Source: Dehalococcoidia bacterium (lineage in GTDB: Bacteria > Chloroflexota > Dehalococcoidia > UBA2979). From it: a stretch of 64,000 nt of DNA. A program made the position numbers and the translations under genes. Location: NCBI GenBank assembly GCA_965262725.1, contig OZ253555.1, forward strand, positions 1,826,762 to 1,890,761, given 5' to 3'. Shown here in pieces: positions 4,121-57,026 of the stretch (positions within the stretch are counted from its first letter, which is position 1; the number at the start of each line of letters is the position of its first letter). The notes beneath the pieces are model-generated. The model saw nothing but the letters and a program-made list of their open reading frames with translations. It was not told where the DNA came from and did no database searches.

Positions 4121-6498
4121 CCATGACGACCAGGACGAGCGCCGAGATCGGCGGCATGGGGCACAGCGTCCGCCGCAAGGAGGATGCCCGCTTCATCCGG
4201 GGCAGAGGCAACTATGTGGACGACGTCGTCCGGCCGGGGATGCTCTACATGGACATCGTCCGGAGCCCCTACGCGCACGCCCGCATCACGAGCATCGACT
4301 CCGAGCGGGCGCTCCAGGTTCCCGGCGTCCTCGCCGTCATCACCGGCGAGACGCTGAAGGAATACAACCTGCACTGGATGCCGACTCTGATGTCCGACAC
4401 GCAGATGGTGCTGCCGGTGGAGAAGGTGATGTTCGCGGGGCAGGAGGTCGCCGCGGTGGTGGCGACCAGCCGCTACGCTGCGGCCGACGGCGTCGAGGCG
4501 GTGGAGGTGGAGTACGAGCGGCTGCCGGTCGTTGTGGACCCCTTCCGGGCGCTGGAGCCGGATGCCCCCGTGCTTCGCGACGACAAGGAGGGGAAGACCG
4601 ACAACCACATCTTCCACTGGGAGGTCGGGGACAAGGCCGCGACCGACCGCGCCTTCGAGGAGGCGGAGGTGACGGTCCAGCAGGATCTCTACATCCCGCG
4701 CATCCACGTGGCCTCCATCGAGACCTGCGGGTGCGTCGCCGAGTTCGACGCCGCGACCGGCCAGCTGACGGTATGGATGACCACGCAGGCCCCTCATGCG
4801 GTGCGGACCGTGTTCGCCCTGGTGGCGGGCCACGTCGGCCTCTCCGAGGAGAAGATCCGGATCATCTCGCCGGATATCGGCGGGGGTTTCGGCGGCAAGG
4901 TACCGGTCTACCCCGGCTATGTGATCGCGGTCGCCGCGGCGGTCGTCACCGGACACCCCATCAAGTGGATCGAGGACCGCATCGAGAACCTGCAGGCGGA
5001 CTCCTTCGGCCGCGACTATCACATGGCGGCGGAGCTGGCCGCGACGCGCGACGGCAAGATGACGGCGCTGCGGATCAAGACCCTGGCCGATCACGGATAC
5101 ACCGACGCCGCTGCGAACCCCTCGAAGTTTCCGGCGGGGCTGTTCTCGATCTGCACGGGCTCGTACGACTTCGAGCAGGCCTTCGCCGAGGTGGACGGCG
5201 TCTACACGAACAAGCCCCCCGGCGGGATCGCCTACCGCTGCTCGTTCCGCGTCACCGAGGCCGTGCACGCGATCGAGCGCCTCGTCGACGTGCTGGCGAG
5301 CGAGCTGGAGATGGACCCGGCCAAGCTCCGGAAGAGGAACTTCATCACGCCCGACGCCTTCCCCTACCAGTCGGTGCTCGGCTGGGAGTACGACAGCGGG
5401 AACTACGAGGGTGCACTCGACCTCGCGATGGAGATGATCGGCTACGACGAGCTCCGCCGGGAGCAGGCCGAGAAGCGCGCGCGCGGCGAGTTGATGGGGA
5501 TCGGCATCTCGAGCTTCACCGAGATCGTGGGGGCGGGTCCCTCGAAGCACTTCGACATCCTCGGGCTGAAGATGTTCGACAGCTGCGAGATCCGCGTGCA
5601 TCCGACCGGCAAGGCCACGGCCCGATTCGGCACGAAGTCGCAGGGGCAGGGCCACGAGACCACTTACGCCCAGATCATCGCGGAGGAGCTCGGCATCCCC
5701 TCGAGCGACATCGCCGTCGAGGAGGGAGACACGGACACCGCGCCCTACGGTCTCGGCACCTATGCCAGCCGCAGCACGCCCACCGCCGGGGCGGCGGGAT
5801 CCGTGGCGGCGACCAGGATCCGCGAGAAGGCGCGGAAGATCGCAGCCCATCTCCTGCGGGCGGAAGAGATCGTGGAGGATGACCTCGAGTGGGAGCCGGG
5901 GCGCTTCTTCGTAGCGAGCGATCCGTCGAAGGGCGTGACGATTCAGGAGATCGCCCTTGCCGCCTACACGGACTTCCCGGAGGGTCTGGAGGGCGGCCTC
6001 GAGGCCGTCTCCTACTACGACCCCCCCAACCTCACCTTCCCCTTCGGCAGCTACATCTGTGTGGTCGACATCGACACCGGCACCGGCGAGATCAGCATCC
6101 GCCGCTTCGTGGCCGTGGACGACTGCGGCAACATCATCAATCCGATGATCGTCGACGGGCAGATCCACGGCGGGCTCGCGATGGGGCTGGCGCCGGCGCT
6201 CTTCGAGGAGCTCTCCTACGACGAGAGCGGGAACCCGCTCAGCGCGAGCTTCACCGATTATCTTCTGCCGACCGCCGTGGAGACGCCGCGATGGGAGACG
6301 GGAAAGACGACGACGCCCTCTCCGCACCACCCGCTGGGTGCCAAGGGTGTGGGCGAGTCGGCCACCGTCGGGGCGCCGCCGGCGATCGCCAATGCGGTGG
6401 TGGACGCGCTCTCGCACCTGGGCGTGCGCCACATCGACATCCCGATCACGCCGGACAAGGTGTGGGCGCTGCTCCGGGAGCACGGGGTGACCGACTAG
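4117..6498 (+). CDS. coxL: form I carbon monoxide dehydrogenase large molybdopterin subunit CoxL
   Basis: 793 aa xanthine-dehydrogenase-family Mo subunit carrying the form-I active-site loop AYRCSFR (GGIAYRCSFRVTE). Confidence 0.85.
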   Translation: MTMTTRTSAEIGGMGHSVRRKEDARFIRGRGNYVDDVVRPGMLYMDIVRSPYAHARITSIDSERALQVPGVLAVITGETLKEYNLHWMPTLMSDTQMVLPVEKVMFAGQEVAAVVATSRYAAADGVEAVEVEYERLPVVVDPFRALEPDAPVLRDDKEGKTDNHIFHWEVGDKAATDRAFEEAEVTVQQDLYIPRIHVASIETCGCVAEFDAATGQLTVWMTTQAPHAVRTVFALVAGHVGLSEEKIRIISPDIGGGFGGKVPVYPGYVIAVAAAVVTGHPIKWIEDRIENLQADSFGRDYHMAAELAATRDGKMTALRIKTLADHGYTDAAANPSKFPAGLFSICTGSYDFEQAFAEVDGVYTNKPPGGIAYRCSFRVTEAVHAIERLVDVLASELEMDPAKLRKRNFITPDAFPYQSVLGWEYDSGNYEGALDLAMEMIGYDELRREQAEKRARGELMGIGISSFTEIVGAGPSKHFDILGLKMFDSCEIRVHPTGKATARFGTKSQGQGHETTYAQIIAEELGIPSSDIAVEEGDTDTAPYGLGTYASRSTPTAGAAGSVAATRIREKARKIAAHLLRAEEIVEDDLEWEPGRFFVASDPSKGVTIQEIALAAYTDFPEGLEGGLEAVSYYDPPNLTFPFGSYICVVDIDTGTGEISIRRFVAVDDCGNIINPMIVDGQIHGGLAMGLAPALFEELSYDESGNPLSASFTDYLLPTAVETPRWETGKTTTPSPHHPLGAKGVGESATVGAPPAIANAVVDALSHLGVRHIDIPITPDKVWALLREHGVTD

Positions 6499-6551
6499 GA
6501 GATCAAGGCGGTCCCGCCGGCGGGCGGTCGCCGCACTGTGGAGCTGGGGCG

Positions 6552-7565
6552 ATGTTGTCATCGGATGATCCGCTGGGACGGGCGGTCGAGCTGCGCGAGC
6601 GGCGGACGCCCTTCGCGCTCGCCACGGTGGTCGCCTGCCGCCGCCCGACCTCGGCATACCCGGGCGCGAAGGCGATCATCGAGGCCGGGGGTGCGTTCAG
6701 CGGCTGGGTGGGCGGGAGCTGCGCGCAGCCGCTCGTGCTGCGCGAGGCGCTGGCGGCAATCGAGGACGGCCGTCCCCGCCTGCTGCGGATCAGCCCCGAT
6801 CCCCCTTCCCCCGACGGAGTGGAGGAGGGAGTGATCCAACTCGCGATGCCGTGCCAGAGCCAGGGATCACTCGAGATCTACGTCGAGCCGTTTCTGCCGC
6901 GCCCGGAACTCGTGGTGATCGGGGAGACGCCGCTGGCCCAGGCCCTGGCCCGGGCAGGCACCCTGATCGGGTTCGACGTCGTCGTCAGCGATCCGGACGC
7001 CACGGCGGAGCGGTTCCCCGATGCCGCCGTGATCGAAGCCGATCTGGAGGCGGCCGCGCGGAGGATGGGAGCCGGAAGCTACGTCGTGGTCGCGACGCAG
7101 GGGCAGTACGACGAAGATGCGGTCTCCGCGGCTCTGCGTTCCGAGGCCGACTACGTGGGTCTCGTCGCGAGCTCGAAGCGGGCCGCCTCCGTCCTCCAGT
7201 ACCTGCGGGACAGCGGCTTCAGCCCCGGCGAGCTGGAGCCGCTCATGTGCCCGGCCGGACTCGATCTCGGCGCCGTGACGCCCGAGGAGATTGCACTCAG
7301 CATCGCCGCCGAGATCCTGCAGGTGAGGCGAGGCGGTCAGGACGGGCATTTGCGGGCATCCTCGGAGCCCGCCTCCGCGGAGGGCGGGGTCTCCGAGGCG
7401 CTGGATCCCGTCTGCGGGATGGTGGTCGGCGTCGCGTCGGCGCGCTACGTGTCCGAGCACGAGGGTCGGCCGGTCTACTTCTGCGCCGCCGGGTGCCGCG
7501 AGCGCTTCGTGCAGGAGCCCGAGCGCTATCTCCCTCTCCTCTCCTCGCTCCCGGGCCGGCCGTGA
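6552..7565 (+). CDS. XdhC/CoxI-family accessory protein fused to a C-terminal YHS (TRASH-like) metal-binding domain
   Basis: XdhC_CoxI N-domain plus a Rossmann-like domain. C-terminus DPVCGMVV...RPVYFCAAGCRERF is a YHS motif. In frame inside the longer ORF 5889..7565. Confidence 0.6.
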   Translation: MLSSDDPLGRAVELRERRTPFALATVVACRRPTSAYPGAKAIIEAGGAFSGWVGGSCAQPLVLREALAAIEDGRPRLLRISPDPPSPDGVEEGVIQLAMPCQSQGSLEIYVEPFLPRPELVVIGETPLAQALARAGTLIGFDVVVSDPDATAERFPDAAVIEADLEAAARRMGAGSYVVVATQGQYDEDAVSAALRSEADYVGLVASSKRAASVLQYLRDSGFSPGELEPLMCPAGLDLGAVTPEEIALSIAAEILQVRRGGQDGHLRASSEPASAEGGVSEALDPVCGMVVGVASARYVSEHEGRPVYFCAAGCRERFVQEPERYLPLLSSLPGRP

Positions 7566-22735: not shown

Positions 22736-23023
22736 CCGGCGAGCGCGCTCCCCTGCAAGCGGTGGTCGGTGGCGACGCGCATCACTGATGCTGCCGGCGT
22801 GAAGCTGCTGCCGACCGCAACATAAGATGGTGGAGGCAGGAGGAGGCTCGGGCCCTCCAGAACCAGGGCATCTGCGGCGCCGCTCAGGGTCGGAGTCGGG
22901 CTGGGCCCGCACGATCCCGTACGGGTTCAGGGCTGGCGTGCCTGGTCGAGACTGGACCCGCGCTGACGTTCGTCGCTTCACGTTGTGTATCGGCCCGAGG
23001 CTACCTTACCCCGGATCCAGAGC

Positions 23024-24937
23024 GCCAGGCTAACTGGCGAGTAGGCAGGAGGTGGAAGTCCTCTATGGCAAAGAGCTAGCCACTCATGTCATTCCGCGAG
23101 CCGTGCGCGGGTCGTCGCGAGGCGGCTTGTGAAGCGTCGGCAGCGGGGTGTGCGGGCGGGGCTAATGAGCATCGAAAGGGCCATTTGGGGTGCCGAGGCT
23201 CTTGGATTGGTCGAAGGCAATACCGGCGACGGCGCTACTGGCGAGTCGTGGTCGGGCCCCACGGTGTCGAAGACCCCATGCACGCACACACGTCTATCGC
23301 CGGGACTTGGGAGAGCTGCGCGTTGTCCCGACGAGTCGTACGCCGGGACCGCGTCGGGAAGGGACGTAAACCGTAGCCGATGATGAACGATGCGCAGCAG
23401 TCTGATGGGGCCGTACGAGCGATGAAGGCGGCGAACAAGGGGGCGCGAGCCCCGGCGGAGTCGCTGGAGCAAAGGGCCCCAACCGAGAGGAATCCTCAAA
23501 GCACCGGCACGGTCCGGACGCAGAGTCGGGGTGCGGTGTCACCCGGAGCGGAGAGGATACGGCAGTTCGTGGAACGGAAGCCGGGAGAGAAACTCACCGC
23601 GCTCTTGCACCACATCACGCCGGAGGCGCTGCGGGAGGCGTATCTCGCGTTGAAGCGGGATGCGGCTCCGGGCGTGGACGGGGTGAGGTGGCGAGAATAC
23701 GGGGACGGGCTGGACGAGCGATTGCTCGACCTGCATGGCCGCGTACACCGTGGAGCGTACCGGGCGAAGCCCGTCAGGCGGGTAGAGATACCCAAGCCGG
23801 ACGGGGGAATACGGCCGCTCGGTATCGTCTCGCTGGAGGACAAGATCGTTCAGCGGGCGGTGGTGGACAATCTTTTGAACCCGATTTACGAGTCGGGCTA
23901 CTACGGCTTCTCGCATGGCTTCAGGCCGGGGCGTTCGGCGCATGACGCGCTGGACGCACTGGCCTACGCGGTCGAACGGCGCAAGGTCAGCTGGATTGTC
24001 GAGGTGGACATCCGGGAGTTCTTCGGCAGCATCGACCGGGGGCGGCTGATGTCGTTTCTGGAGATGCGCATCGGGGACCAGCGGGTGTTGCGCCTGATAC
24101 GAAAGTGGCTGAGCGTCGGCGTCATGGACGCGGAGCCGGAAGTCGATTTCGTGCGGGGGATGCCGCAGGGGGCGCCGATATCGCCGCTGCTTGCGAACGT
24201 GTACCTGCACAACGTGCTCGACGACTGGTTTGCGCGCGAGTGGCGACCGCGGGAGGTCCGGGGCGAGGCGTACATCGTGCGGTATGCCGATGACTTCGTC
24301 CTGGGGTTCCAGCACCGCAGCGATGCGGTGCGGTTCATGGAGGCACTCCGGGAGCGGTTCGCGGCCTACGGGCTGGAGCTGCACCCGGAGAAGACCCGTC
24401 TACTTGAGTTCGGCAGGTTCGCGCTGGCGAACAGGCGGAAGCGCGGGGAGGGCCGACCGGAGACGTTCGACTTTCTCGGCATGACGCACTACTGCCGGAC
24501 CCGACGCGACGGGAGATTCGGGCTGGGGCGCAAGCCCGTTGCGAAGCGGATGCGCCGGACGCTGAAGGCCATCAAGGCCGAGTTGTGGCGGCGCATGCAC
24601 GACAACCCCGTGACGACGGGGCAGTGGCTGGGGCGGGTACTGCGTGGGTGGCTTGGCTACTACGCGGTGCCGACCAGCTCGCCGGCGCTCACGCGGTTTG
24701 TTCGTTTCGTGAAGCGGCTCTGGCTGCGCGTTCTCCGACGGCGGTCGCAGCGCGACCGTTTCACGTGGGAGCGCATCCTTGCCCTGTGCCAGAAACACTG
24801 GCCCCGAATCTCCATCCTTCACCCGTGGCCTGCGGAGCGATTTGCCGTCACGCACTTGAGGTAGGAGCCGGATGCCCGAGAGGGCACGTCCGGATCTGTG
24901 CGGGGGGTGCCGGGCAACCGGCATCCCTACCGCGAAC
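23024..24937 (+). mobile_element. group II intron copy 1 (5'-truncated relative to copy 2; intact RT ORF; domain V at 24865-24898)
   Basis: Near-identical to 48467-51718 apart from the IS insertion there. Domain V GAGCCGGATGCCCGAGAGGGCACGTCCGGATCT and a domain VI hairpin follow the RT ORF. The 5' boundary is where identity to copy 2 starts; no GUGYG at that point. Confidence 0.7.
23380..24864 (+). CDS. group II intron reverse transcriptase/maturase
   Basis: RT domains 0-7 (LHHITPEALREAYLALKRDAAPGVDGV, YADDFVLGF), an X/maturase domain and a C-terminal region. The true start is probably internal; the first ~60 aa likely translate domain IV RNA. Confidence 0.85.
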   Translation: MMNDAQQSDGAVRAMKAANKGARAPAESLEQRAPTERNPQSTGTVRTQSRGAVSPGAERIRQFVERKPGEKLTALLHHITPEALREAYLALKRDAAPGVDGVRWREYGDGLDERLLDLHGRVHRGAYRAKPVRRVEIPKPDGGIRPLGIVSLEDKIVQRAVVDNLLNPIYESGYYGFSHGFRPGRSAHDALDALAYAVERRKVSWIVEVDIREFFGSIDRGRLMSFLEMRIGDQRVLRLIRKWLSVGVMDAEPEVDFVRGMPQGAPISPLLANVYLHNVLDDWFAREWRPREVRGEAYIVRYADDFVLGFQHRSDAVRFMEALRERFAAYGLELHPEKTRLLEFGRFALANRRKRGEGRPETFDFLGMTHYCRTRRDGRFGLGRKPVAKRMRRTLKAIKAELWRRMHDNPVTTGQWLGRVLRGWLGYYAVPTSSPALTRFVRFVKRLWLRVLRRRSQRDRFTWERILALCQKHWPRISILHPWPAERFAVTHLR

Positions 24938-25093
24938 CGGTGACCGGTGTTGAGCCGTGCGGAGGAGCGCGAAGCGGCCGTCGTGTGAGGTGCGGGAGCC
25001 GTTTGTGACTCCCGGAGGAGTGCGCGGCGCTGTCCGGGGCGTGTGATCAGCAGGGGAGACCGGCGCGGAGGCGATTGCGGACAGGCGGGCGCG

Positions 25094-26535
25094 CGGCGCT
25101 GGTCCGCGAGCGGCGAGGGGGAGCGGCGTCAGGTCGGGAGCGGGAGCGCGCGCAGCCGTGCGAGGGCATCGGTGAAGTGACCGGCCCATGGCCAGCGCGC
25201 CGGCAGATGGAGCGTGAACCGACGAGCAGAGCGGGTCAGCCGCCCGACGAGAGCGAAGAGCCGCCGCCGGAGCGTCCGGGTGGTGACGATGCGCTCGCCG
25301 AGCCCGAGCCGCGCCGTCCAGCGAGCGAGATTGTGGGCGATCACCTGGACCGCGAGCCAGGCGCCGTTGGCGGCGAAGCGGCCGGACGGCAGGTGATTGA
25401 GCCCCACGCCGTACTTCAGGTCGCGGATCGCGTTCTCGACCTCGGCGTGGCGGCGATGGTCGGCCTCCAGTTCGAGCGTCTCCCCGTCGCGGTCGGTGAT
25501 GAAGGCGTGGTAGCTATACGTCGCGAAGAGAGCGAGCTGCGAACCAGGCGTCGGCCGCACGCGCCGGACGATGAGCCGCACCGGGACGGCGTCCGGCGCG
25601 TGTGCGAACGGCGTGTAGGTCGTCTCTGAGACATCGGCGCCGCCCTCCAGCCAGTACGGGATCGGCGTCCACTCCTGTTCGGGAATCGCCTCGGTCAGCT
25701 TCCGCAGCTTCGGATGCTGGCGGATCGTGACCGAGAAGCGGACATCCATCTCGCGGCAGGCAGCGACCACCGCGCGGGAGTAGAAGCCGCTGTCGGCGCG
25801 CACCGTGAGTTGCCCGTTCGCTCCGGCATCGCGGACTCGACCCACCGTCTCCTGTAGGAAGTGGGCGGCGCCCCGGCCGCTGTACGCACGACCCCCGCGC
25901 AGCCGGGCCATCAGCACGTCACCCGTCCCGGCCGCCACCGCGAGCAGCGGGTGATAGCCGCGCGCACCGGTGTAGCCGGGGCGCTGCGCCCCCTCCTTGG
26001 CGAAGCCGTAGGTCTCGCACACCGTCGAATCGAGGTCGATGGTGAATGGCGCCTCGCCGGGTCCGGCCCCGGCGGCCCAGGCGCGGGCAAGCAGCGCGCG
26101 ACTGACGCGGTCGAGCTGGCGGACGTGGCCCCAGCGGAAACTGCGTAGGAAGGTGCCGAGCGTGGATGGCGCCTTGACGGTGCATCCGAGAACGCGCTCT
26201 GTGCCGCCGGCGCGCAACGCATCGGCATCGTCGATGCAGTCGCCGCCCGCTAGCACGGAGGCGACGAGTGTCGCGACCTTGTCTCCCGCGTTCGCCCTGC
26301 CCGGTGCGTCGCCGAGGTCGAGGTGACGGTCGACCAGCTCCCGCAGGCCGAGACGTTCGGCGAGCGTGGCCGGCAGGAGCAGACCCGCGTGGGCCACCAG
26401 GCGGTCGTCGTCGAAGGCGATCGAGAGCCGGGCGGGGCTGCTCGGTGATAGCATCGAATGGGTGCTCCCTGTTTCCGGTGGATCGTTCGCTTCACGACCA
26501 TTCTCCCAGATTCAGAGGAGCACCCAATTCCCTCT
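25094..26535 (-). mobile_element. IS1380-family insertion sequence (copy A)
   Basis: Transposase 25129..26454. Both termini are homologous to the ends of IS copy B at 51733-53161. Confidence 0.7.
25129..26454 (-). CDS. IS1380-family DDE transposase
   Basis: 441 aa, about 85% identical to the 51819..53144 product. Typical IS1380 transposase layout. Confidence 0.8.
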   Translation of the reverse strand: MLSPSSPARLSIAFDDDRLVAHAGLLLPATLAERLGLRELVDRHLDLGDAPGRANAGDKVATLVASVLAGGDCIDDADALRAGGTERVLGCTVKAPSTLGTFLRSFRWGHVRQLDRVSRALLARAWAAGAGPGEAPFTIDLDSTVCETYGFAKEGAQRPGYTGARGYHPLLAVAAGTGDVLMARLRGGRAYSGRGAAHFLQETVGRVRDAGANGQLTVRADSGFYSRAVVAACREMDVRFSVTIRQHPKLRKLTEAIPEQEWTPIPYWLEGGADVSETTYTPFAHAPDAVPVRLIVRRVRPTPGSQLALFATYSYHAFITDRDGETLELEADHRRHAEVENAIRDLKYGVGLNHLPSGRFAANGAWLAVQVIAHNLARWTARLGLGERIVTTRTLRRRLFALVGRLTRSARRFTLHLPARWPWAGHFTDALARLRALPLPT

Positions 26536-26705
26536 CTTCGCGACTGCATCCACGCTCTCCTTCGGTGCATCCGGGCTTACGGTGCTCGAGTCAGCCGGCG
26601 ACCAGCGTTGGGTGGGACATCGTGTCGGTGTTGGCCCGGGGAGCCGCGCGACCGACGAGGCACGCACGCGTCTTCGTGATCGCGCTCCGCTCGACGTGGC
26701 TCGAG

Positions 26706-26835
26706 ATGCGCACGCGCTCCGAGTTCATCTCCACGCTCGGGAACGGCGTGCCCCGCTTCGCCGTTCTCGCCTGGATCGCGGGTCAGAGCGAGGATTCGAG
26801 CGTGGTCGCGACCGTATCGGTCGGGATCGTGCTGC
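26706..26835 (+). CDS. candidate exon 1 of an intron-split ABC-2 permease gene (hypothesis)
   Basis: Stop-free, GC3-rich frame (MRTRSEFISTLGNGVPRFAVLAWIAG...VGIVL) that ends exactly at the GTGCG 5' splice site of intron X. Resembles DrrB-type N-termini. Confidence 0.3.
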
Positions 26836-27649
26836 GTGCGTCCGGAAGTCGAAGGGGTGGTGACGTGATGACGTGACCGGTCCGGAGACATGCTCGTTGC
26901 TGCCAGCCGGTGAGAGTCCGGCACGGGTAACTGTCAGGAGGCCCGTTAGCAGGTCGGCGGCGTGGACGGGAAACGGTCTGCGTCGAAGCCCGACGTCAAG
27001 AGCCCTATGAGGGGGAGCAAACGTGCGGTCCGCAGCATGACGCGAAGTCTGCCGCGCCGTGAGACTCGCCTGTCTATTGACAGGACCAAGGAGGAGCCGA
27101 GCCCGGGTGGTCAGGGCGAAGGCCATGGACGAGGTGAAGATCCTGGAATGCAGCCTCAAGAAACCTCCCGGCGTATGGGACGTGGAACGTACGGAAGGTA
27201 GCGACGGGAACCGGAGAAGCCCTCCCCGGCCCGGCACCCTGTGAGAGGGCGTCGGAGCGAGGCGTCCTATAACCGGTCAGAGCCGGGAAGTGGACAGCCA
27301 GCCGGAAGGGTGGCGGAGGGGGTCGTAGTACCGCTGGAGCCGGACGGACAACATAACCGCCGGTGATGGGAAGGACCCCTACTTTGTCCGTGCATGTTGC
27401 TGGGGGTGTGGACTGGTGAGTGCCCCTCGGGGCTAGCAACCACTTGGTAGGGTTCGAGGCTCTCCGCACATGCTGTACCGGCTGGCCAAGGCACGACCCA
27501 CGTTGTGGGGAGCGCTGCATGCCATCTGGTGAAGGGCATCGGTGAGCCGGATGAGGGAGAACCTCACGTCCGGTTCGATGTGGCAGGGGCTGGAGACGGA
27601 CGCTGCTATGGCCGTGGAGTTGGGCACCACCGGGAAACCGGCTTGGAAC
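26836..27649 (+). mobile_element. ORF-less group II intron (intron X), related to the domain I of the RT-encoding intron
   Basis: 5' GTGCGTCCGGAAGTCGAAGG aligns with 48121 GTGCGCCTTGAAGTTGAAGG, and the first ~350 nt are about 80% similar to 48121-48466. Canonical domain V GAGCCGGATGAGGGAGAACCTCACGTCCGGTTCG at 27544-27577. No RT ORF. The 3' end is approximate. Confidence 0.65.
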
Positions 27650-27651
27650 TG

Positions 27652-28299
27652 ATGCGCCACCGCCTACGGCTCGCACCGCGCCAGCCCCTGACCCTACTCG
27701 TTATCTGGACGGCCGCGGCTTTCCGCGTCAGCTTCACCCTGCGGAATGAGGCGTTCCTCGGGACGCTCGACCTCAACATGCTCGGCCGCTCGCCGCTGGC
27801 TTTGATCACGCTCGGCAAGGCGGCCGCCGTCACGCTCTCCTTCGTCCCGAACGCGATCGCCGCCCTGATCGTCGTGTTCGCCGTCACGCGCCAGCCGATC
27901 ACGGTCGCGGCGCTCCCTGCGTTCGCGGTCGCGATGACGCTGGCGATCCTCGCTCTCCTCGCGGTGGCGTTCGTGCTCTTGCCGATGCTCTTCATCATTG
28001 GGAACCGCGCCGGCTCCTTCGCCGCGATCACGCCCTTCGGCGCCGTGCTGTCGGGCTTCGTCTACCCGATCGATGTCCTCCCGGGCGCGCTCGAGGTCGT
28101 GGCCCGCCTCATGCCGACGTCGTGGGCGATGGAGACGGTCAGGTGGTCGATCTTCGGCGGCCACGACGCCTCCGACTTCGCCGGCCACTGGGCGGTCGCC
28201 GCCGCGCTGACCGCGCTCTACGTCGCGATCTCCGTGTGGCTCTTCCGGGTCGCGGAGACCCGCATACGCCGGAGCGGCAGCGTGGAGGGCGGGTTCTAG
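27652..28299 (+). CDS. ABC-2 type transporter permease (possibly exon 2 of an intron-split gene)
   Basis: Six predicted TM segments. The ATG at 27652 lies 3 nt after the proposed intron 3' end. Confidence 0.6.
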   Translation: MRHRLRLAPRQPLTLLVIWTAAAFRVSFTLRNEAFLGTLDLNMLGRSPLALITLGKAAAVTLSFVPNAIAALIVVFAVTRQPITVAALPAFAVAMTLAILALLAVAFVLLPMLFIIGNRAGSFAAITPFGAVLSGFVYPIDVLPGALEVVARLMPTSWAMETVRWSIFGGHDASDFAGHWAVAAALTALYVAISVWLFRVAETRIRRSGSVEGGF

Positions 28300-28300
28300 C

Positions 28301-29083
28301 ATGGCGGCATTCGCCGCGCAGTCGCGCCTCTCCTACGTCGCGCTCTTCTACTGGCTCTACCCGTGGGGCTACGTCTCGAACGTCATCCTCGCCCCGTTCT
28401 TCCAGCTGCTCACCTTCTCCCTGGTCGCCACCTACGCGACCGGCGCCGAGTCGGCGCAGCGCTACATGGTGGGCATGATCACCTGGGCGATCGTCTGGAT
28501 CGTGATCTCGGGGATCCTGCAGTCGTTCGCCTACGACCGGGGCTTCGGGACGCTCTCGCTGCTCTTCTCGACGCCGGTCTCGCGGCTGGGCGCGCTCACC
28601 GGCCGTGCCGCGCTGCACTTCCCGAACGGTGTGATCAGCGCCCTCGTGACGATCGCGCTGGCTGCGCTGTTCGCGGGTCTCGACGTGTCCTCGCTCGACT
28701 GGGGGACGGCGGCGGCCGCGGTGGTGATGATGTCGCTCGGCTGTACGACCCTCGGGCTGGTGCTGGGCTGCTGGACGGCGCTCACCCAGGACTGGTTCGT
28801 CTCCAACGCCGCGTCCCACGCGCTGCTCATCACCCTCACCGGCGTACTGGTCCCCACGGCCGACCTCCCCCCGGTGGCCTCCGACGTCGGCGTGCTGCTG
28901 CCGCTGACGCACGGTGTCGAGGCGCTCAGGCAGGCGTTCGCCGGGGCTTCCATCGCCGATGTCGGAGACGAGCTCGTCCGCGAGGGGCTCGTGGCGCTGG
29001 CGTACGGCGTCGCGAGCTACGTCGCGTTTCGTCTGCTGGAGCGCCATGCCCGGCGCACCGGTGCCCTGGAGCTCACGGGCTAG
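28301..29083 (+). CDS. ABC-2 type transporter permease
   Basis: 260 aa multi-TM protein directly downstream, same operon. Confidence 0.65.
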   Translation: MAAFAAQSRLSYVALFYWLYPWGYVSNVILAPFFQLLTFSLVATYATGAESAQRYMVGMITWAIVWIVISGILQSFAYDRGFGTLSLLFSTPVSRLGALTGRAALHFPNGVISALVTIALAALFAGLDVSSLDWGTAAAAVVMMSLGCTTLGLVLGCWTALTQDWFVSNAASHALLITLTGVLVPTADLPPVASDVGVLLPLTHGVEALRQAFAGASIADVGDELVREGLVALAYGVASYVAFRLLERHARRTGALELTG

Positions 29084-29094
29084 GGAGGCTTGCC

Positions 29095-30069
29095 ATGGTG
29101 GACGGGCCAGCGATCGAGTGCGAGGAGCTCGGGCGCCTCTACGAGTCGCGGGGGCTGCTGGGGCGCCGCAGCGAGACGGTGGCGCTCGACGGGCTCACGC
29201 TCGATATCCCGCGCGGCGCGGTCTTCGGCCTGCTCGGCCCGAACGGGGCGGGGAAGACCACGACCGTGCGCATCCTCTCGACGCTGCTGCTGCCGAGCTC
29301 GGGCTCCGCGCGCGTGCTCGGCCACGACGTCGAGCATGAGGCGGGCGAGGTGCGCAAGCACATCGGGCTCGCCCTCGGCGGCGAGCGCGGGCTCTACGGC
29401 CGGCTCTCCGGCCGCGACAACCTGCGCTACTTCGGGGCGCTGCAGCACATGTCGGGGCGTGACGCCGGGCGCCGCATCGACGAGATCCTGGAACTCGTCG
29501 GGCTCGCGGATTCCGGTGGCACGCTGGTCGAGCGCTACTCGCGCGGGATGCGGCAGCGGCTCCAGATCGGCCGTGCGCTGCTCGCGCGGCCCGAGGTGAT
29601 CTTCCTCGACGAGCCGACGATCGGGCTCGACCCGCAGGGGGCTCAGGAGTTCCGGGCGCTGGTGCCGGAACTCGCCGCTGCGGGCGCGGCCGTGCTGCTC
29701 ACGTCCCACTACATGCTCGAGGTGGACCAGCTGTGCGAGACGGTCTGCGTGATCAACGAGGGCCGCGAGGTGGCACTCGGCAGCCCCGCCGAGATCAAGC
29801 GCCGATTCGGCCGCGCCTCGGTGATCGAGGCGCTGCTGACGGAGCTCCGCGAGGGGCTTGTCGGCACGCTCGAGTCACTCCCGGCGGTGCAGCGCGTGGA
29901 GGTCACGAGCGACGGCGGCACGCACCGGGCGATGGTCCACCACGCGCCGGATGCGGATGTCAGCGCCCACGTGACTCAGATCGTGGGCGCTGCGAACATC
30001 GTGCACATGACCACGCGGGAGCCGACGCTCGAGGAGGCCTACCTCGAGCTGATCAGCCGCGAGCGATAG
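29095..30069 (+). CDS. ABC transporter ATP-binding protein
   Basis: RBS GGGAGG. Walker A (GPNGAGKTT), the LSGGQ-like YSRGMRQRL and Walker B (ILDEPT). Confidence 0.85.
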   Translation: MVDGPAIECEELGRLYESRGLLGRRSETVALDGLTLDIPRGAVFGLLGPNGAGKTTTVRILSTLLLPSSGSARVLGHDVEHEAGEVRKHIGLALGGERGLYGRLSGRDNLRYFGALQHMSGRDAGRRIDEILELVGLADSGGTLVERYSRGMRQRLQIGRALLARPEVIFLDEPTIGLDPQGAQEFRALVPELAAAGAAVLLTSHYMLEVDQLCETVCVINEGREVALGSPAEIKRRFGRASVIEALLTELREGLVGTLESLPAVQRVEVTSDGGTHRAMVHHAPDADVSAHVTQIVGAANIVHMTTREPTLEEAYLELISRER

Positions 30070-45640: not shown

Positions 45641-46008
45641 ATGAACGCTGCAATTGGCGGCACCGTCCTGAGGATGCACAGCGGGGGCAACGGCGCAGGC
45701 AAAGAGTTTGCCCTGCTTCAATCCGCGCGGGCGGTCGAGCATCAATCGGGAGTACTACTCGCCGGCGCGTACGAAGCCATCGCCCTACACGATGCCGATG
45801 CCCCTCCAACACGAACCAACCCGGCTATGGCGAGGGCCTGCTTGTCGCTAAGACGTGCGATGAGCGAGGCGCAAGGCCCTCGGATGGCGATGGAATACGG
45901 CGAGGACCGCGTCGTAGTTGGCATCAGATTGAATCAGGCGAAGCATGCCTTCGTCCAAGCCGACGAGATAGGCGAACGGGCCAAGATTGTGGCCGCTGGG
46001 AAGACGAA

Positions 46009-46012
<4 letters not shown>
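45641..46012 (+). CDS. small hypothetical ORF whose stop overlaps the katG remnant start (ATGA)
   Basis: 124 aa (MNAAIGGTVLRMHSGG...). No recognisable motifs. Lower-GC region. Confidence 0.2.
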
Positions 46013-47166
<1,154 letters not shown>

Positions 47167-47439
47167 CACCTGGGCTTTGCCGCAGAAGCGCGGCCGGCGT
47201 GCCAAGGCCAAGAGGCCCCTCCGGCTTCACGGGGTTGACGCCGCGGACTTACCCGAGCGCGGTGCTGCTGTCTAGTGCTCGACATAATCCCCACTGGACG
47301 AACATGGGGATGTCCGTTCAGCTGCGATAAACGATGAGCTGCCTCGCGGGGTGCGCTTTCGCTGCACGTTCCACACTGCGAGTAGGCGGACGCCAGTCGG
47401 GCACGGCGGCCGTCGTCAGACGTCTAAGAGCCGCCACAG

Positions 47440-47800
47440 GAGCGGCTCCCCGTCGTTGAGGGCTACCAGCGCCTCGCAGATCGATTCGGGCAGGCTCTTC
47501 GAAGTAGTCCGTCTCGAACCAGACGATCGTCGGGAAATCGACGGAATCGAGGCCCGTCTGCACCAGCCGGGGGTGGCGACGAGGTCGAGGAGCGCCTATG
47601 GGGCTCCCGTGGGCAGAACGAGATCTTCAGCTCGTTTGCGGTGAGGGACATGCTCAAGAACGCGTTCTACCTCGGGATGGTCACACATACCGCGGCGACA
47701 CGTTTCGCGGTCAGCACGAGCCGATCGTGACCCAGCAGCGCTACCAGCACGAGCAGGCGAGGCGCAGCGTCGTGCCGCCCAGAAGCACCACCGGCGGTGC
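47440..47800 (+). pseudogene. fragments of a large serine recombinase gene (frameshifted)
   Basis: Frames give ...LKNAFYLGMVTH... and ...YRGDTFRGQHEPIVTQQRYQHEQ..., resembling the zinc-ribbon / recombinase-domain region. Confidence 0.3.
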
Positions 47801-47866
47801 CACGGGACTCCTTCACGGGCGGCTCCGAGATATCGTCAAGAGTTGTGGATCGCTGGCCAGGGCAAG

Positions 47867-48120
47867 TCAGGCGGCGTACCTCCCGTGGCGTGCGTCGTCG
47901 CTCGCATCCGGGCTGACGGCTCGTTCCTGTAGGACGCCATCGACGAAGACGCCGCCCGCCCGGACGACGGCGACGAGTTGCGGGGCGTTCACCCGCCGCC
48001 AGCGCTGCTGCGCGGCGTCGAGCAGTTTGTAGGCCATCGCCAGTCCCGCCGACCGCGACCCGGCGCCCTTCGTGACGCGCTGGCGCAGCCGCACCGTCGC
48101 GAAGGTGGACTCGATCGGGT
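47867..48120 (-). pseudogene. C-terminal fragment of a DDE transposase, abutting the intron copy-2 5' splice site
   Basis: PIESTFATVRLRQRVTKGAGSRSAGLAMAYKLLDAAQQRWRRVNAPQLVAVVRAGGVFVDG. The N-terminal about 300 aa are absent. Confidence 0.4.
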
Positions 48121-49355
48121 GTGCGCCTTGAAGTTGAAGGACGGTGCAGGATGACCTGACCAGTCTGGAGACGTGCTCGTTGTCGCCAACCGGTGCAAGT
48201 CCGGTCCGGGTAACTATCAGGAGGCTCGGTAGCAGGTCGGCGGCTTGGTCTGGAAACGGACCGGGTCGGAGCCCGACGTCGAAAGCCCTTTCAGGGGAAG
48301 CAAACACACGGTCCGCAGCATAAAGCGAAGCCTGCCGCGTCGTAAGAGTCCCCGCCATTGGCGGGAAAGAGGAAGAGCCGAGCCCCGACCCTCAGGGCGA
48401 AGGCCATGGAAGAGATGAAGACCTGGAATCGCAATCTCGAAGAACTTCCCGGCGTAAGCCCTGATCCAGAGCGCCAGGCTAACTGGCGAGTAGGCAGGAG
48501 GTGGAAGTCCTCTATGGCAAAGAGCTAGCCACTCATGTCATTCCGCGAGCCGTGCGCGGGTCGTCGCGAGGCGGCTTGTGAAGCGTCGGCAGCGGGGTGT
48601 GCGGGCGGGGCTAATGAGCATCGAAAGGGCCATTTGGGGTGCCGAGGCTCTTGGATTGGTCGAAGGCAATACCGGCGACGGCGCTACTGGCGAGTCGTGG
48701 TCGGGCCCCACGGTGTCGAAGACCCCATGCACGCACACACGTCTATCGCCGGGACTTGGGAGAGCTGCGCGTTGTCCCGACGAGTCGTACGCCGGGACCG
48801 CGTCGGGAAGGGACGTAAACCGTAGCCGATGATGAACGATGCGCAGCAGTCTGATGGGGCCGTACGAGCGATGAAGGCGGCGAACAAGGGGGCGCGAGCC
48901 CCGGCGGAGTCGCTGGAGCAAAGGGCCCCAACCGAGAGGAATCCTCAAAGCACCGGCACGGTCCGGACGCAGAGTCGGGGTGCGGTGTCACCCGGAGCGG
49001 AGAGGATACGGCAGTTCGTGGAACGGAAGCCGGGAGAGAAACTCACCGCGCTCTTGCACCACATCACGCCGGAGGCGCTGCGGGAGGCGTATCTCGCGTT
49101 GAAGCGGGATGCGGCTCCGGGCGTGGACGGGGTGAGGTGGCGAGAATACGGGGACGGGCTGGACGAGCGATTGCTCGACCTGCATGGCCGCGTACACCGT
49201 GGAGCGTACCGGGCGAAGCCCGTCAGGCGGGTAGAGATACCCAAGCCGGACGGGGGAATACGGCCGCTCGGTATCGTCTCGCTGGAGGACAAGATCGTTC
49301 AGCGGGCGGTGGTGGACAATCTTTTGAACCCGATTTACGAGTCGGGCTACTACGG

Positions 49356-50681
49356 GGCACCTCGAAGAACTCGCGATTGTTGATGAAGGTATCGGTGAGG
49401 GCACGAGGGGGCAGAGGGCGTAGCTGAGGAGACCCCAGGGGGTGTGGGTGAGTCCGCGAGAGCATAGGTGAAGCGGGATAATTGACAGTTAAACGGGACT
49501 GTCAAAGCACCGAACTAGAGGCTGGTGTGAGGTCTGTGGACGGGTGGCGGCAAGCTAGGCCGCGGCAGCCGTACGGCGGTGTTCGAGGTGCGCCAGACGG
49601 CGAATATTGTACGCCAGGTTCTTGAAGCCGATCTGCGTCACTGCCCGCCGCACGCCGATCGTACGGATGTGCGTGCCGCCCATCTCGTTCGTCTGCGAGC
49701 CGAAGATGTGCTCAACCCGGGCCCGTACTTGCGACCATCCCCGGTTGACCGCCTCCTCAGCCGCCGTCAACGGCCGGTTGGCAGCGGCCTTCCGATGGAT
49801 GCGGCTCGTCAGACCTTTCTCCGTGAGCATTGCCTCAATCGCCCGCGACCGATAGGCACGGTCTGCCCACACATCGGGTGACGTGTTCGGAGAGTCGAGC
49901 AGCTGGTCGATCACCTGGCTGTCATGGACCGCGGCATCGGTGACGGCGTAGGAACGCACCAGCTTGTGGCGCCGATCGATGGTGATGTGGTTCTTGTAGC
50001 CGTAGTGACTCTTCCCGTGCTTCTTCGTCCAGCGGGCGTCGAGGTCTTTCTGGGCCAGCTTCGCCGGATTGAAGACCCACTCCGAGGGAATGAGGTCCTG
50101 CTTGAGCGACTCGTTCTCCCGGCGGCTGTTGCGCTGGATCGGCACCGAGACGATCGAGGCGTCGACGATCTGTCCGCCACTGGCGCGGTAGCCCTGGCTG
50201 GCGAGATAGTGGTCGAAGGCCTGGAACAACTCGGCGATGGCGCCCGCCCTGGTCAACTGCTCGCGGTAGAGCCAGAAGGTGGTGGCGTCGGGCACCCGGC
50301 CTTCGATGCCTGTGCCGCAGAAGCGGGAGAAGGAGAGACGGTCGCGGATCTGATACTCAATCTGTTCATCGGAGAGGTTGTAGAGTACGCCGAGTATCAA
50401 TCCCTTGAAGATGACGATTGCGTCCCATGGCTTGCGTCCGGCCGGTGATTTACGCTCTTCTTCGGGCGTGGCCCAGACGGCTTCTAACTGAGGTCTGAAC
50501 TGCTCCCACGGGATGATTTGGTCGAGCTTGGCGAGTGGGTCGCCCTTGGCGTCGAGAGCGTCGTAGCGGTCGTCCACATTGAAGAACCCAAGTTGGCCCA
50601 TATCATCCCCCGTAACCATGACCCTAATGGCTACAGTATATCATTCACCATGCCGACGATATAGTCATTCTTCGAAGTGCC
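49356..50681 (-). mobile_element. IS5-family insertion sequence nested in the intron RT ORF
   Basis: Imperfect terminal inverted repeats GGCACCTCGAAGAA / GGCACTTCGAAGAA. Flanking direct repeat about CTACGG. Transposase at 49555..50619. Confidence 0.7.
49555..50619 (-). CDS. IS5/IS4-superfamily DDE transposase
   Basis: 354 aa DDE_Tnp_1-like protein (...DASIVSVP...WTKKHGKSHYGYKNHIT...DRAYRS...). Confidence 0.75.
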   Translation of the reverse strand: MVTGDDMGQLGFFNVDDRYDALDAKGDPLAKLDQIIPWEQFRPQLEAVWATPEEERKSPAGRKPWDAIVIFKGLILGVLYNLSDEQIEYQIRDRLSFSRFCGTGIEGRVPDATTFWLYREQLTRAGAIAELFQAFDHYLASQGYRASGGQIVDASIVSVPIQRNSRRENESLKQDLIPSEWVFNPAKLAQKDLDARWTKKHGKSHYGYKNHITIDRRHKLVRSYAVTDAAVHDSQVIDQLLDSPNTSPDVWADRAYRSRAIEAMLTEKGLTSRIHRKAAANRPLTAAEEAVNRGWSQVRARVEHIFGSQTNEMGGTHIRTIGVRRAVTQIGFKNLAYNIRRLAHLEHRRTAAAA

Positions 50682-51732
50682 CTACGGCTTCTCGCATGGC
50701 TTCAGGCCGGGGCGTTCGGCGCATGACGCGCTGGACGCACTGGCCTACGCGGTCGAACGGCGCAAGGTCAGCTGGATTGTCGAGGTGGACATCCGGGAGT
50801 TCTTCGGCAGCATCGACCGGGGGCGGCTGATGTCGTTTCTGGAGATGCGCATCGGGGACCAGCGGGTGTTGCGCCTGATACGAAAGTGGCTGAGCGTCGG
50901 CGTCATGGACGCGGAGCCGGAAGTCGATTTCGTGCGGGGGATGCCGCAGGGGGCGCCGATATCGCCGCTGCTTGCGAACGTGTACCTGCACAACGTGCTC
51001 GACGACTGGTTTGCGCGCGAGTGGCGACCGCGGGAGGTCCGGGGCGAGGCGTACATCGTGCGGTATGCCGATGACTTCGTCCTGGGGTTCCAGCACCGCA
51101 GCGATGCGGTGCGGTTCATGGAGGCACTCCGGGAGCGGTTCGCGGCCTACGGGCTGGAGCTGCACCCGGAGAAGACCCGTCTACTTGAGTTCGGCAGGTT
51201 CGCGCTGGCGAACAGGCGGAAGCGCGGGGAGGGCCGACCGGAGACGTTCGACTTTCTCGGCATGACGCACTACTGCCGGACCCGACGCGACGGGAGATTC
51301 GGGCTGGGGCGCAAGCCCGTTGCGAAGCGGATGCGCCGGACGCTGAAGGCCATCAAGGCCGAGTTGTGGCGGCGCATGCACGACAACCCCGTGACGACGG
51401 GGCAGTGGCTGGGGCGGGTACTGCGTGGGTGGCTTGGCTACTACGCGGTGCCGACCAGCTCGCCGGCGCTCACGCGGTTTGTTCGTTTCGTGAAGCGGCT
51501 CTGGCTGCGCGTTCTCCGACGGCGGTCGCAGCGCGACCGTTTCACGTGGGAGCGCATCCTTGCCCTGTGCCAGAAACACTGGCCCCGAATCTCCATCCTT
51601 CACCCGTGGCCTGCGGAGCGATTTGCCGTCACGCACTTGAGGTAGGAGCCGGATGCCCGAGAGGGCACGTCCGGATCTGTGCGGGGGGTGCCGGGCAACC
51701 GGCATCCCTACCGCGAACCGAAGAAGAGTGCG

Positions 51733-53161
51733 CGAGCGGCTGGGGTTGGGTGCTCCGCTGTAGCTGGGACAATGGTTTTTGACCGAATCACGTCACAGCC
51801 ACAGGGAGCACCCATTCGATGTTAGCAACGAGCAGCCCCGACCGGATACACATCGCCTTCGACGACGACCGCCTCGTGGACCACGCGGGCCTGCTGCTCC
51901 CGGCCACGCTCGCTGGCCGGCTCGGCCTCCGTGAACTGGCAGACGCCCAGCTCGACCTCGGTGACGCAGCGGGGCGGGCGAACGTCGGCGACAAGCTGAT
52001 GACTCTCATCGCCTCGGCGCTCGCGGGCGGCGACTGCATCGATGACGCCGATGCCATGCGCTCAGGCGGCGCCGGGCGCGTGCTCGGCTGCACCGTGAAG
52101 GCGCCGTCCACCCTCGGGACCTTCCTGCGCAGCTTCCGGTGGGGCCACGTCCGCCAGCTCGACCGCGTCAGCCGCGAGTTGCTGGCCCGCAGCTGGGCGG
52201 CCGGGGCGGGACCCGGCGCGGCGCCGTTCACGATCGACCTCGACTCGACGCTCTGCGAGACCTACGGCCTCGCCAAGGAGGGCGCCCGGCACCACGGCTA
52301 CACGGGCGTGCGCGGCTATCACCCGCTGCTCGCGGTGGCGGCCGGGACGGGTGAGGTGCTGATGGCGCGGCTGCGCGGGGGCCGTGCCAACACCGCTCGG
52401 GGGGCCGCACACTTCCTGCGTGAGACGGTGGCGCGGGTGCGCGACGCCGGGGCCTCGGGGCAGCTCACGCTGCGCGCCGACAGCGGCTTCTACAGCCACG
52501 CTGTCGTCGCCGCCTGCCGCAAGCAGGATGTCCGCTTCTCCATCACCATTCGCCAGCAGCCGAACGTACGCCGGCTGATCGAGGCGATACCGGAAGAGGA
52601 CTGGACGCCGATCCCGTACTGGCTGCCGGGCGGCGCCGCTGTCGCCGAGACGACCTACACGCCGTTCCAGCACACGGGGGACGCCACCGCGGTGCGGCTC
52701 ATCGTGCGGCGCGTCACGCCGACGCCCGGCTCACAGCTCGCGCTCTTCGTGGACTACAGTTACCACGCCTTCATCACCAACCGCGCGGGGGAGATGATGG
52801 AGCTGGAGGCCGACCATCGCCGTCACGCCGAGATCGAGAACGCGATCCGCGACCTCAAGTACGGCGTCGGGTTGAACCATCTCCCATCGGGCCGCTTCGC
52901 CGCGAACGCGGCGTGGCTCGCGGTGCAGGTGATCGCGCACAACCTCGCCCGCTGGACGGCGCGCCTCGGGCTCGGCGAGGGAATCATGACGACCAGGACG
53001 CTCAGGCGGCGCTACTTCTCTCTCGCCGGACGGCTCACCCGCTCTGCCCGGCGGTGGACTCTGCACCTCCCGAAGCGCTGGCCCTGGGCAGAGCAGCTGG
53101 CAGCCGCGCTCGCGCGACTACGGGCGATACCGCTCCCGGCCTGACGCTCGCTCACAGCGCC
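51733..53161 (+). mobile_element. IS1380-family insertion sequence (copy B)
   Basis: Starts about 14 nt after the intron copy-2 3' end. Transposase at 51819..53144. Ends homologous to copy A. Confidence 0.7.
51819..53144 (+). CDS. IS1380-family DDE transposase
   Basis: 441 aa paralog of 25129..26454. Confidence 0.8.
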   Translation: MLATSSPDRIHIAFDDDRLVDHAGLLLPATLAGRLGLRELADAQLDLGDAAGRANVGDKLMTLIASALAGGDCIDDADAMRSGGAGRVLGCTVKAPSTLGTFLRSFRWGHVRQLDRVSRELLARSWAAGAGPGAAPFTIDLDSTLCETYGLAKEGARHHGYTGVRGYHPLLAVAAGTGEVLMARLRGGRANTARGAAHFLRETVARVRDAGASGQLTLRADSGFYSHAVVAACRKQDVRFSITIRQQPNVRRLIEAIPEEDWTPIPYWLPGGAAVAETTYTPFQHTGDATAVRLIVRRVTPTPGSQLALFVDYSYHAFITNRAGEMMELEADHRRHAEIENAIRDLKYGVGLNHLPSGRFAANAAWLAVQVIAHNLARWTARLGLGEGIMTTRTLRRRYFSLAGRLTRSARRWTLHLPKRWPWAEQLAAALARLRAIPLPA

Positions 53162-53370
53162 GACCCGGGTCCGAGGCTCGCGCCAGCATGCCCGCGCACG
53201 CCTCGCGCACCCTCGCGCCCGCACCCTCAGCGCCCACGAGCGGTGCTGAGCGACGGCTTCTGGCTCCGGCCCGCCCCCGGCGCCGCCCGGCGAACGCCGG
53301 CACGCCCGCCGAACTCTCCGGCAGCCCGGCACCCCGCCTCGTCAAGCTTCGATCGGTGGATTCGAGCTTA
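53162..53370. repeat. 209-bp direct repeat, copy 1 (second copy at 55042-55250)
   Basis: About 98.5% identical copies flanking the IS481-like element. No convincing ORF. Confidence 0.85.
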
Positions 53371-53377
53371 GACCGAT

Positions 53378-55015: not shown

Positions 55016-55022
55016 GGTCGGG
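54997..55022. repeat. about 25-bp direct repeat (second copy at 63962-63989), candidate att-type boundary
   Basis: CGCTGACCGTCGACAGTCACTGGTCG versus CGCTGAGTCCGTCACAGTCACTGGTCG at the window end, next to int/xis. Confidence 0.4.
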
Positions 55023-55041
55023 TATTAGAACGATCGGAACA

Positions 55042-55250
55042 GACCCGGGTCCGAGGCTCGCGCCAGCATGCCCGCGCACGCCTCGCGCACCCTCGCGCCC
55101 GCACCCTCAGCGCCCCCGAGCGGTGCTGAGCGACGGCTCCTGGCTCCGGCCCGCCCCCGGCGCCGCCCGGCGAACGCCGGCACGCCCGCCGAACTCTCCG
55201 GCAGCCCGGCACCCCGCCTCGTCAAGCTTCGATCGGTGGATTCGAGCTAA
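55042..55250. repeat. 209-bp direct repeat, copy 2
   Basis: See 53162-53370. Confidence 0.85.
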
Positions 55251-55343
55251 GGGGATCCGACTCCGTAGGGGCCTCGACTAGGTGGCGTGGTTCGACGCGG
55301 CGGAAGTTCCTGCGTGGTGGATCAACGACGAAGAAGGAGCATT

Positions 55344-55619: not shown

Positions 55620-55704
55620 GCGCCGGTGTCCCTACACACTACTCCCATGCTCAGCTCAGACTGGGTAGACAGCGCCTGGTCACGCGGAGAGTCGGTGGCG
55701 ACTC

Positions 55705-56511: not shown

Positions 56512-56660
56512 TCCCGAACTCTGACTGGGACACGATACGCGGCGGAACCAATGACCCATGCTGCGCCGCCCACCCAGTACGCCGATTGTGCGCGAGAGAC
56601 GGTCTTGGGAACGCCCGGTGCCGACCGCCGCACAGTCCGTGCGAGGTGAGGCGTGGCAGA

Positions 56661-57020: not shown

Positions 57021-57026
57021 CCTTGC

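Follow-up and report, generated by a model that had tools for sequence, protein, structure and literature searches.

How does a gene for an ABC-2-type permease come to contain a group II intron that encodes no reverse transcriptase (RT), and could such a gene still make its protein? The gene in question lies in a 64,000 nt stretch of a Dehalococcoidia genome (contig OZ253555.1, positions 1,826,762 to 1,890,761; the whole stretch is here called the window), which has a G+C content of 68.8%. It is the first gene of an ABC permease-permease-ATPase operon, and is interrupted in codon 70, after the first base, by a sense-oriented intron that we designate X. An earlier inspection of the sequence (the original prediction) had recognized an intron lacking an open reading frame (ORF) in the sense strand of this gene, and this holds: X begins with GTGCG at 26836, matches the Rfam domain I model RF02003, has a domain V, and no RT ORF was found within it (26836-27697). 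The explanation we favor, at a probability of roughly 85%, is that X is a non-autonomous mobile group II intron that inserted ectopically into the sense strand of the permease gene, and whose exact splicing would restore the ORF with the assistance in trans of an RT/maturase of the same intron family.

The limits of X are defined by strains that lack it. Seven contigs contain the empty site, which reads GTGCTGC^TCGTTATC in L002-L005, L106 and L107 (a caret marks the insertion point throughout); the empty-site contigs, encoding either P0001 (an uninterrupted permease described below) or the downstream permease, read GGGATCGTGCTGC^TCGTTATCTGG, with flanks 99.3-100% identical to the window (L002 2132-3552, for example, corresponds to window 27694-29114). 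In the window exactly 862 nt separate the two halves of this sequence; there is no target-site duplication, the only ambiguity is of 1 nt (C), and the comparison sets the 3' end of X, ..CUAC, at 27697. The alignment to RF00029, the domain V/VI model, also stops at 27697, and related introns end ..CCAGCCCCCGACCCUAC^, a motif identical to that of X; four independent lines agree on this position as the 3' end. X is a natural insertion polymorphism: the filled allele and the empty one occur in strains up to 99.98% identical over 14.8 kb of flanking DNA (one empty-site contig, of 6.98 Mb, is 99.96-99.98% identical to the window over this length).

Joining the two exons at these boundaries (Table 1) gives an 810 nt gene with a GTG start codon that corresponds to the gene start at L001 6001, and a product of 269 residues. 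A protein search with the spliced permease yielded 18 homologues, the best of which, P0001, is an uninterrupted 269-residue protein with 99% identity. At the junction the homologues read VSVGIVL^LVIWTAAAF with no insertion, and exact excision of X is predicted to rebuild a full-length permease ORF that matches uninterrupted homologues across the junction, a match that the original prediction had anticipated and that is obtained with the 27697 end. The spliced product scores 26.9 bits against PF12698 (cut-off 31.6) and 16.6 bits against PF01061 (cut-off 26.9), and a precomputed PF12698 match is present in most of the close homologues. The unspliced frame encounters a stop codon at 26874-26876 and encodes only 82 residues. 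Because X is 862 nt long (3n+1) and contains this stop 39 nt from its start, only splicing could preserve the protein, and the earlier description of X as an 'in-frame' intron has no meaning. The stop-free upstream frame rich in third-position G+C does end at the 5' splice site as proposed and is the true N-terminus of the permease, although it starts at GTG 26628 rather than ATG 26706; homologues cover it as permease N-terminus, and it is not the tail of another disrupted gene.

The ribozyme of X is that of a structured, family-typical intron. RF00029 matches 27542-27697 end to end in a permissive scan (37.5 bits, E 2e-5); the long apical insert in domain VI keeps this score slightly below the gathering score of 40. 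When 27540-27697 is folded, a single long hairpin follows domain V (-82 kcal/mol, z = -4.9), in which the basal helix of domain VI (GGCAGGGGCUGG paired with CCAGCCCCUG-A-CC) is predicted to leave A27691, the seventh base from the 3' end, bulged. Domain V has compensatory changes in an alignment of 10 family sequences and the single-sequence fold agrees; the 10 family members with a long domain VI share a 44-pair consensus, with compensatory changes at 16 of the pairs and an unpaired A that never varies. Since 11 of the 20 recovered family 3' regions, X included, have the long form, this is a trait of the subfamily and not damage. In Bacillus cereus, intron B.c.I4 has a 3' extension and splices downstream of its predicted site, and it resembles X in that the true 3' splice site lies tens of bases beyond the standard domain VI expectation; in X, however, the extra RNA is an apical extension within domain VI, with conventional basal helix and branch A and no added 3' domain. 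X deviates at 14 of 298 well-conserved family columns (family median 6, range 0-64); it is divergent yet within the range of its family, and its catalytic domains are predicted to be intact and family-typical.

Comparison with this family indicates how the RT was lost. A 19-mer common to X and to an intron fragment at window position 48121 is found at at least 100 loci in representative genomes and, among the matches listed, Actinomycetota predominate as hosts (Streptomyces, Mycobacterium and Acidimicrobiia among them). Members of full length measure about 2.1 kb, and one family RT has RVT_1 and GIIM domains with no endonuclease domain. Positions 1-600 of X align to more than 60 full-length members and positions 692-862 also align to full-length relatives, whereas domain IV of X has about 90 nt in place of an ORF of about 1350 nt, with stubs (LYRLAKARP.. 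and ..CHLVKGIGEP) that are the two ends of the intron-encoded protein. By these alignments X is an ORF-deleted member of a large intron family residing mostly in actinobacterial genomes. A 911 nt ORF-less intron (L102), on a 3.3 Mb chromosome labelled as a Dehalococcoidia metagenome-assembled genome, aligns to X along its whole length with about 73-77% identity; a permease homologue 78% identical to that of the window is probably on the same chromosome. X and L102 share the same deletion of the RT gene, in which N-terminal ..LYRAAKA..ERAW is fused to C-terminal ..PNAIR and the stop codon, X having lost slightly more; the deletion is therefore older than their divergence. Scans of JGI metagenomes with lineage-specific patterns gave no match.

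Further copies of X were located through a spurious 200-codon antisense ORF inside it, which has three 100%-identical matches with differing ends in the protein database. One copy, identical at 862 of 862 positions (L110), is in the sense strand of an inositol-monophosphatase-like gene; its 5' exon ends ..GGCCAC^, of which CCAC is a perfect match to the exon-binding sequence EBS1, and the spliced product gives one continuous Pfam Inositol_P match over the junction. A second 862/862-identical copy (L113) interrupts the RT ORF of another family member, a full-length intron that itself resides in an IS21 istB gene; over domains I-III this host intron and X have 80% identity, and over domains V-VI 91%. 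Removal of X from this ORF gives an uninterrupted RT/maturase of 444 residues (..CFESIP^HDRLM..YADD..), and the 5' exon, CGAGUCGAUACCCC^, matches EBS2 at six of six positions. A third copy (L111/L112; 99.9% identical in L111, over 722 nt) lies at this same RT site within another host intron, whose RT stub is 87% identical; the first 350 nt of the L111 host intron are 99.4% identical to window 48108-48458. X is, by these comparisons, multicopy and recently mobile. The RT ORF of full-length relatives looks like its home site, and the permease and phosphatase sites look like ectopic insertions; all three sites resolved on the 5' side (permease, inositol-monophosphatase-like gene and RT ORF) are sense-strand insertions inside ORFs.

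The arrangements at these loci are themselves complex. At L113 4132-7865 there is a three-level nesting, with istB containing the full-length family intron (4424-7359), which in turn contains X in its RT ORF (5545-6406), and the L111 copy of X is itself split by an intron of another type, a relative of the RT-bearing intron discussed below. In a 3.67 Mb contig the antisense ORF (protein P0020) crosses the 5' end of X into the 3' end of another X (..CCCTAC^GTGCG..), which implies a head-to-tail X-X tandem; this may lie at the RT home site, with P0040 as the 193-residue RT stub. Family RT stubs of 193-198 residues, 83-87% identical, are present in different large contigs (P0041, P0042, P0048 and P0051, of which P0042 is that of L113), and suggest that the ..CFESIP^ site is taken by ORF-less introns in several genomes.

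Exon recognition is consistent with this distribution. EBS1 and EBS2 (Table 1) were located by inspecting covariation within the family: of 51 distinct family cases, 37 have all four bases of EBS1 paired with exon positions -1 to -4 (7.8 in shuffles, with a maximum of 17 in 2000), and of 60 cases, 21 have at least five of six EBS2 bases paired with positions -9 to -14 (6.3 in shuffles, with 14 at most). EBS2 pairs at six of six positions with the home site sequence CGAGUC (L111 and L113). Pairing at the permease site appears adequate but imperfect, and it is because of this imperfect match to the exon-binding sequences of X that the site looks ectopic. Three other segments complementary to exon 1, GAUCCU (27139-27144), GCAGC (27151-27155) and GCAGCAU (27033-27039), were rejected as EBS since their loops are conserved in the family whatever the exon, and a histogram of exon-complementary 6-mers showed no clear peak.

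The likely scenario is that an old internal deletion of the RT/maturase gene gave rise to a ribozyme-only X, which usually targets one fixed site within RT ORFs of full-length relatives and forms a twintron there, and that one copy reverse-spliced into the imperfectly matching site in the sense strand of the permease gene. Reverse splicing is proposed because the ends are exact, there is no target-site duplication and the exon-binding and intron-binding sequences (EBS and IBS) can pair. Splicing at 26835^27698 with branching at A27691 would rebuild the 269-residue ORF exactly. Both the mobility and the efficient splicing of X would depend on an RT/maturase acting in trans from a same-family intron elsewhere in the genome, and not on the RT at 23380-24864. 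A broader proposal, that X is an old and obligately non-autonomous lineage housed in its own helper's RT gene and now seeding the sense strands of host protein genes in a free-living bacterium of about 7 Mb, is one that we regard as speculative and rather unlikely. With X inside the RT gene of its helper, the helper protein could be made only after X is spliced out.

The identity of the helper bears directly on this scenario. The sole intact RT in the window (23380-24864), whose maturase the original prediction had nominated, is of another lineage: RTs of the family of X share 34-40% identity with it, and its intron matches the domain I model RF02005 where X matches RF02003, making it a poor candidate on these comparisons. 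The only other member of the family in the window is at 48121-48457, the 5' 337 nt of a full-length family intron cut by an insertion sequence (IS), with no ORF; it is 79% identical to X and 99.4% to the L111 host intron, and its EBS1 (ACCC) perfectly matches its 5' exon (GGGU^). No domain V was found beyond the IS that cuts it. An assignment of the 5' exon of this fragment as the antisense tail of an IS256/Mutator transposase was supported neither by tblastn against the Mutator transposase of the window nor by Pfam. The cognate helper, if this strain has one, is outside the window; the 444-residue family RT of L113, restorable by removal of X, exists in a contig that carries an identical X.

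The alternative that survives best is that the same X, with the same origin, does not splice here, either because the maturase is lacking or because the ribozyme is impaired, and that a permease in an operon already being lost has simply been inactivated. We consider this possible, with the odds somewhat against it. Several observations that agree with it also weigh against our preferred explanation. No same-family RT was found in the 64 kb window, the pairing of IBS1 at the permease site depends on two predicted G-U pairs within an imperfect IBS match, and at conserved positions X has diverged somewhat further than the median family member (14 deviating columns against 6). A strain-specific 3.57 kb insertion at 23010-26575, between an SDR gene and the permease and consisting of an IS and an RT-bearing intron, lies 52 nt ahead of the start codon of the permease, and the operon may have lost its promoter through it; such a loss would weaken the argument that X must splice at the permease. 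The insertion of X is also too recent for selection to have acted, given flanks that are 99.96-100% identical to those of empty-site strains. Splicing of X in this strain is, moreover, a prediction from sequence, and L110, L111 and L113 are contigs of metagenome assemblies, whose copies of X perhaps belong to genomes other than that of the window. Against inactivation, the catalytic domains are intact and typical of the family, and the identical copies elsewhere indicate that X was recently part of active ribonucleoproteins, for which splicing is required. All three sites with a resolved 5' side are also sense-strand, intra-ORF insertions, and a restorable helper RT is present among the contigs that bear identical X copies.

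In its details the original prediction differed from this account, ending the intron at ..GGAAC (27649), 48 nt upstream of the actual end (..CCCUAC), and proposing a protein that includes LMRHRLRLAPRQPLT, with the maturase of the RT-bearing intron (23020-24936) assisting. We give this version almost no credence. It does keep the frame, since 48 is a multiple of three and both ends therefore satisfy the frame test, and GGAAC resembles the 3' end of the RT-bearing intron. However, it is refuted by the empty-site DNA, which puts the boundary at 27697; the covariance-model match to RF00029 and the 3' ends of the family likewise give 27697 and not 27649, and joining at 27697 lengthens the Pfam alignment of the permease. 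All 13 aligned homologues read VSVGIVLLVIWTAAAF and lack the 16 residues that it would insert, and MRHRLRLAPRQPLT, which had been read as part of the permease, forms the 3' strand of domain VI and is absent from the same 13 of 13. The supposed likeness of both exon ends to a DrrB-type N-terminal segment fails, as part of that sequence is intron, and the product has 269 rather than about 260 residues. Its proposed helper RT is too distant, at the 34-40% identity already given. The gene model is thus corrected to a split gene, and is neither two fragments nor a protein with a 16-residue insert; no database record was found for the chimeric ORFs 27652-28299 and 27505-28299.

Loss of the ORF in place, after a full-length RT-encoding intron had entered the permease gene, is also very improbable. 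ORF-less introns do ultimately come from ORF deletion, and X retains stubs of its ORF, but ORF-less copies identical at 862 of 862 positions are present at two other loci, the same deletion is found in L102 (about 75% identical) in another genome, and sister strains have empty sites and not full-length introns. That the assembly misplaced a repeat into the permease gene is scarcely credible, for although X is a multicopy repeat and repeats can misassemble, the junctions are base-exact intron ends with no exon bases duplicated or lost, the 5' exon pairs with both EBS1 and EBS2, and a misjoin would not normally yield a perfect ORF upon excision.

Table 1. Coordinates of intron X, its host gene and adjacent features in the window.
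Feature	Position	Strand	Description and basis
Exon 1, ABC-2-type permease coding sequence	26628..26835	+	GTG start, 69 codons and base 1 of codon 70
Exon 2, permease coding sequence	27698..28299	+	Remainder of codon 70 through stop
Intron X	26836..27697	+	862 nt ORF-less group II intron, GUGCG...CCCUAC; empty-site comparison, identical copies
IBS2 CGGGAU	26822..26827	+	Exon positions -14 to -9; pairs 5/6 with EBS2, two G-U
IBS1 CUGC	26832..26835	+	Last 4 bases of exon 1; pairs 4/4 with EBS1 GUGG (2 Watson-Crick, 2 G-U)
Domain I core	26904..27040	+	Rfam RF02003 group-II-D1D4-4; 102.8 bits, gathering score 49, E 8e-22
EBS2 GACUCG	27063..27068	+	Upstream of hairpin; family covariation with exon -14 to -9
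EBS1 GUGG	27107..27110	+	Loop immediately 5' of conserved UCAGGGCGAAGG; family covariation
Domain IV remnant	27436..27527	+	Stubs of lost RT/maturase N- and C-termini; alignment to full-length relatives
Domain V	27544..27576	+	AGC triad, 2 nt bulge, GAGAA loop; RF00029, fold, covariation
Extended domain VI	27582..27693	+	About 110 nt, GAAA-capped; fold, 10-sequence alignment
Second ABC-2 permease, paralogous	28301-29083		PF01061, 58.7 bits
ABC ATPase	29095-30069		ABC_tran and DrrA C-terminal domain
IS	23010-23019 + 24937-26575		PF13701 transposase 25129-26454, minus strand; terminal repeat CCCGGATSCACCG; 5 bp duplication CTTAC
RT-bearing intron, copy 1	23020-24936		Full length; 10 nt inside IS terminal repeat; 494-residue RT ORF intact

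X is best viewed as a further member of the known kind of helper-dependent ORF-less introns, in a new host and a new intron lineage, and not as a novel type of element. Introns without an ORF are rare in bacteria and almost always accompany related RT-encoding introns, and the majority of introns in bacteria occur outside housekeeping genes (PMC4424553); the earlier remark that an intron in a transporter gene would be unusual is right insofar as both ORF-less introns and introns within genes are uncommon in bacteria, but they are documented (PMC4424553, PMC2882425). The closest parallel is TeI3 of Thermosynechococcus elongatus, in which a single ancestral deletion left ORF stubs, identical copies occupy multiple sites, and the intron homes into the RT ORF of its relatives and is mobilized by RTs in trans (Mohr, Ghanem & Lambowitz 2010, PMC2882425). 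Both introns have an ancestral internal deletion with N- and C-terminal stubs and identical copies at several sites, and both prefer a home in the RT ORF of ORF-containing relatives (twintrons), with occasional host-gene insertions. Dependence on RTs in trans was demonstrated experimentally for TeI3, as against the sequence-based case for X described here. X differs also in its host, a GC-rich bacterium of a different phylum with a genome of about 7 Mb, in its lineage (RF02003 domain I, extended domain VI and an RT without endonuclease domain), and in its home site, which falls midway through the RT domain (..CFESIP^H..), whereas the TeI3 site is between the two start codons.

Archaeal group II introns without an ORF home into related introns' ORFs (Dai & Zimmerly 2003, cited in PMC4424553). 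They and X alike lie within the RT ORFs of relatives as a result of repeated homing to a specific site, whereas X has in addition entered two host protein genes of an ordinary kind. Group II introns within bacterial host genes are known too, and C.te.I1 of Clostridium tetani is an ORF-less intron that needs no helper (PMC4424553). Like other host-gene introns, X is in the sense strand of a protein gene whose function would hinge on splicing, but it is a strain-level polymorphism and not fixed, and, in contrast to C.te.I1, there are close relatives of it that encode an RT and could act as helpers. If its copies are efficiently spliced by one common maturase in trans, X would provide a second independent bacterial model, after T. 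elongatus, of intron spread through protein genes by means of a shared splicing factor. With the home site and two ectopic gene sites known, trans-mobilization and trans-splicing become directly testable in a lineage without prior description.

The contigs L002-L005, L106 and L107 lack both the IS and the RT-bearing intron of the upstream insertion. The possibility that this intron is 5'-truncated was ruled out, as it is full length and begins 10 nt inside the inverted repeat of the IS; its ends, GAGCG...CGCGAA, were set by comparison with the uninterrupted IS in L001. Both copies in the window (at 23020 and 48469) start with GAGCG and not the canonical GUGCG, and the L111 relative, which is 83% identical, starts with GTGCG; the U-to-A change at position 2 may impair splicing. 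Copy 2 (48458-53400 region) occupies the corresponding point, CCCTGATCCA^, of the terminal repeat in a second, oppositely oriented IS (81% identity to the first), and in L111 (at about 838) the relative is inside domain V of X, after GCCGGATGAGGG. The RT-bearing intron thus seems, from these sites, to target a CC(G/T)GAT-containing motif wherever it is present.

Among the various other insertions, the RT ORF of copy 2 is split by an IS5-like element at 49356-50681 (a 354-residue transposase on the minus strand, with DDE_Tnp_1 and DUF772), for which a 6 bp overlap of the flanks suggests a target duplication. The region 46000-64000 is rich in mobile elements, including an IS with HTH domains (53456-55000), a Mutator-family transposase (60953-62197) and a phage-type integrase on the minus strand (62342-63580). 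We also note that a 285-residue ORF at 46052-46909 has only a partial match to a Pfam peroxidase domain.

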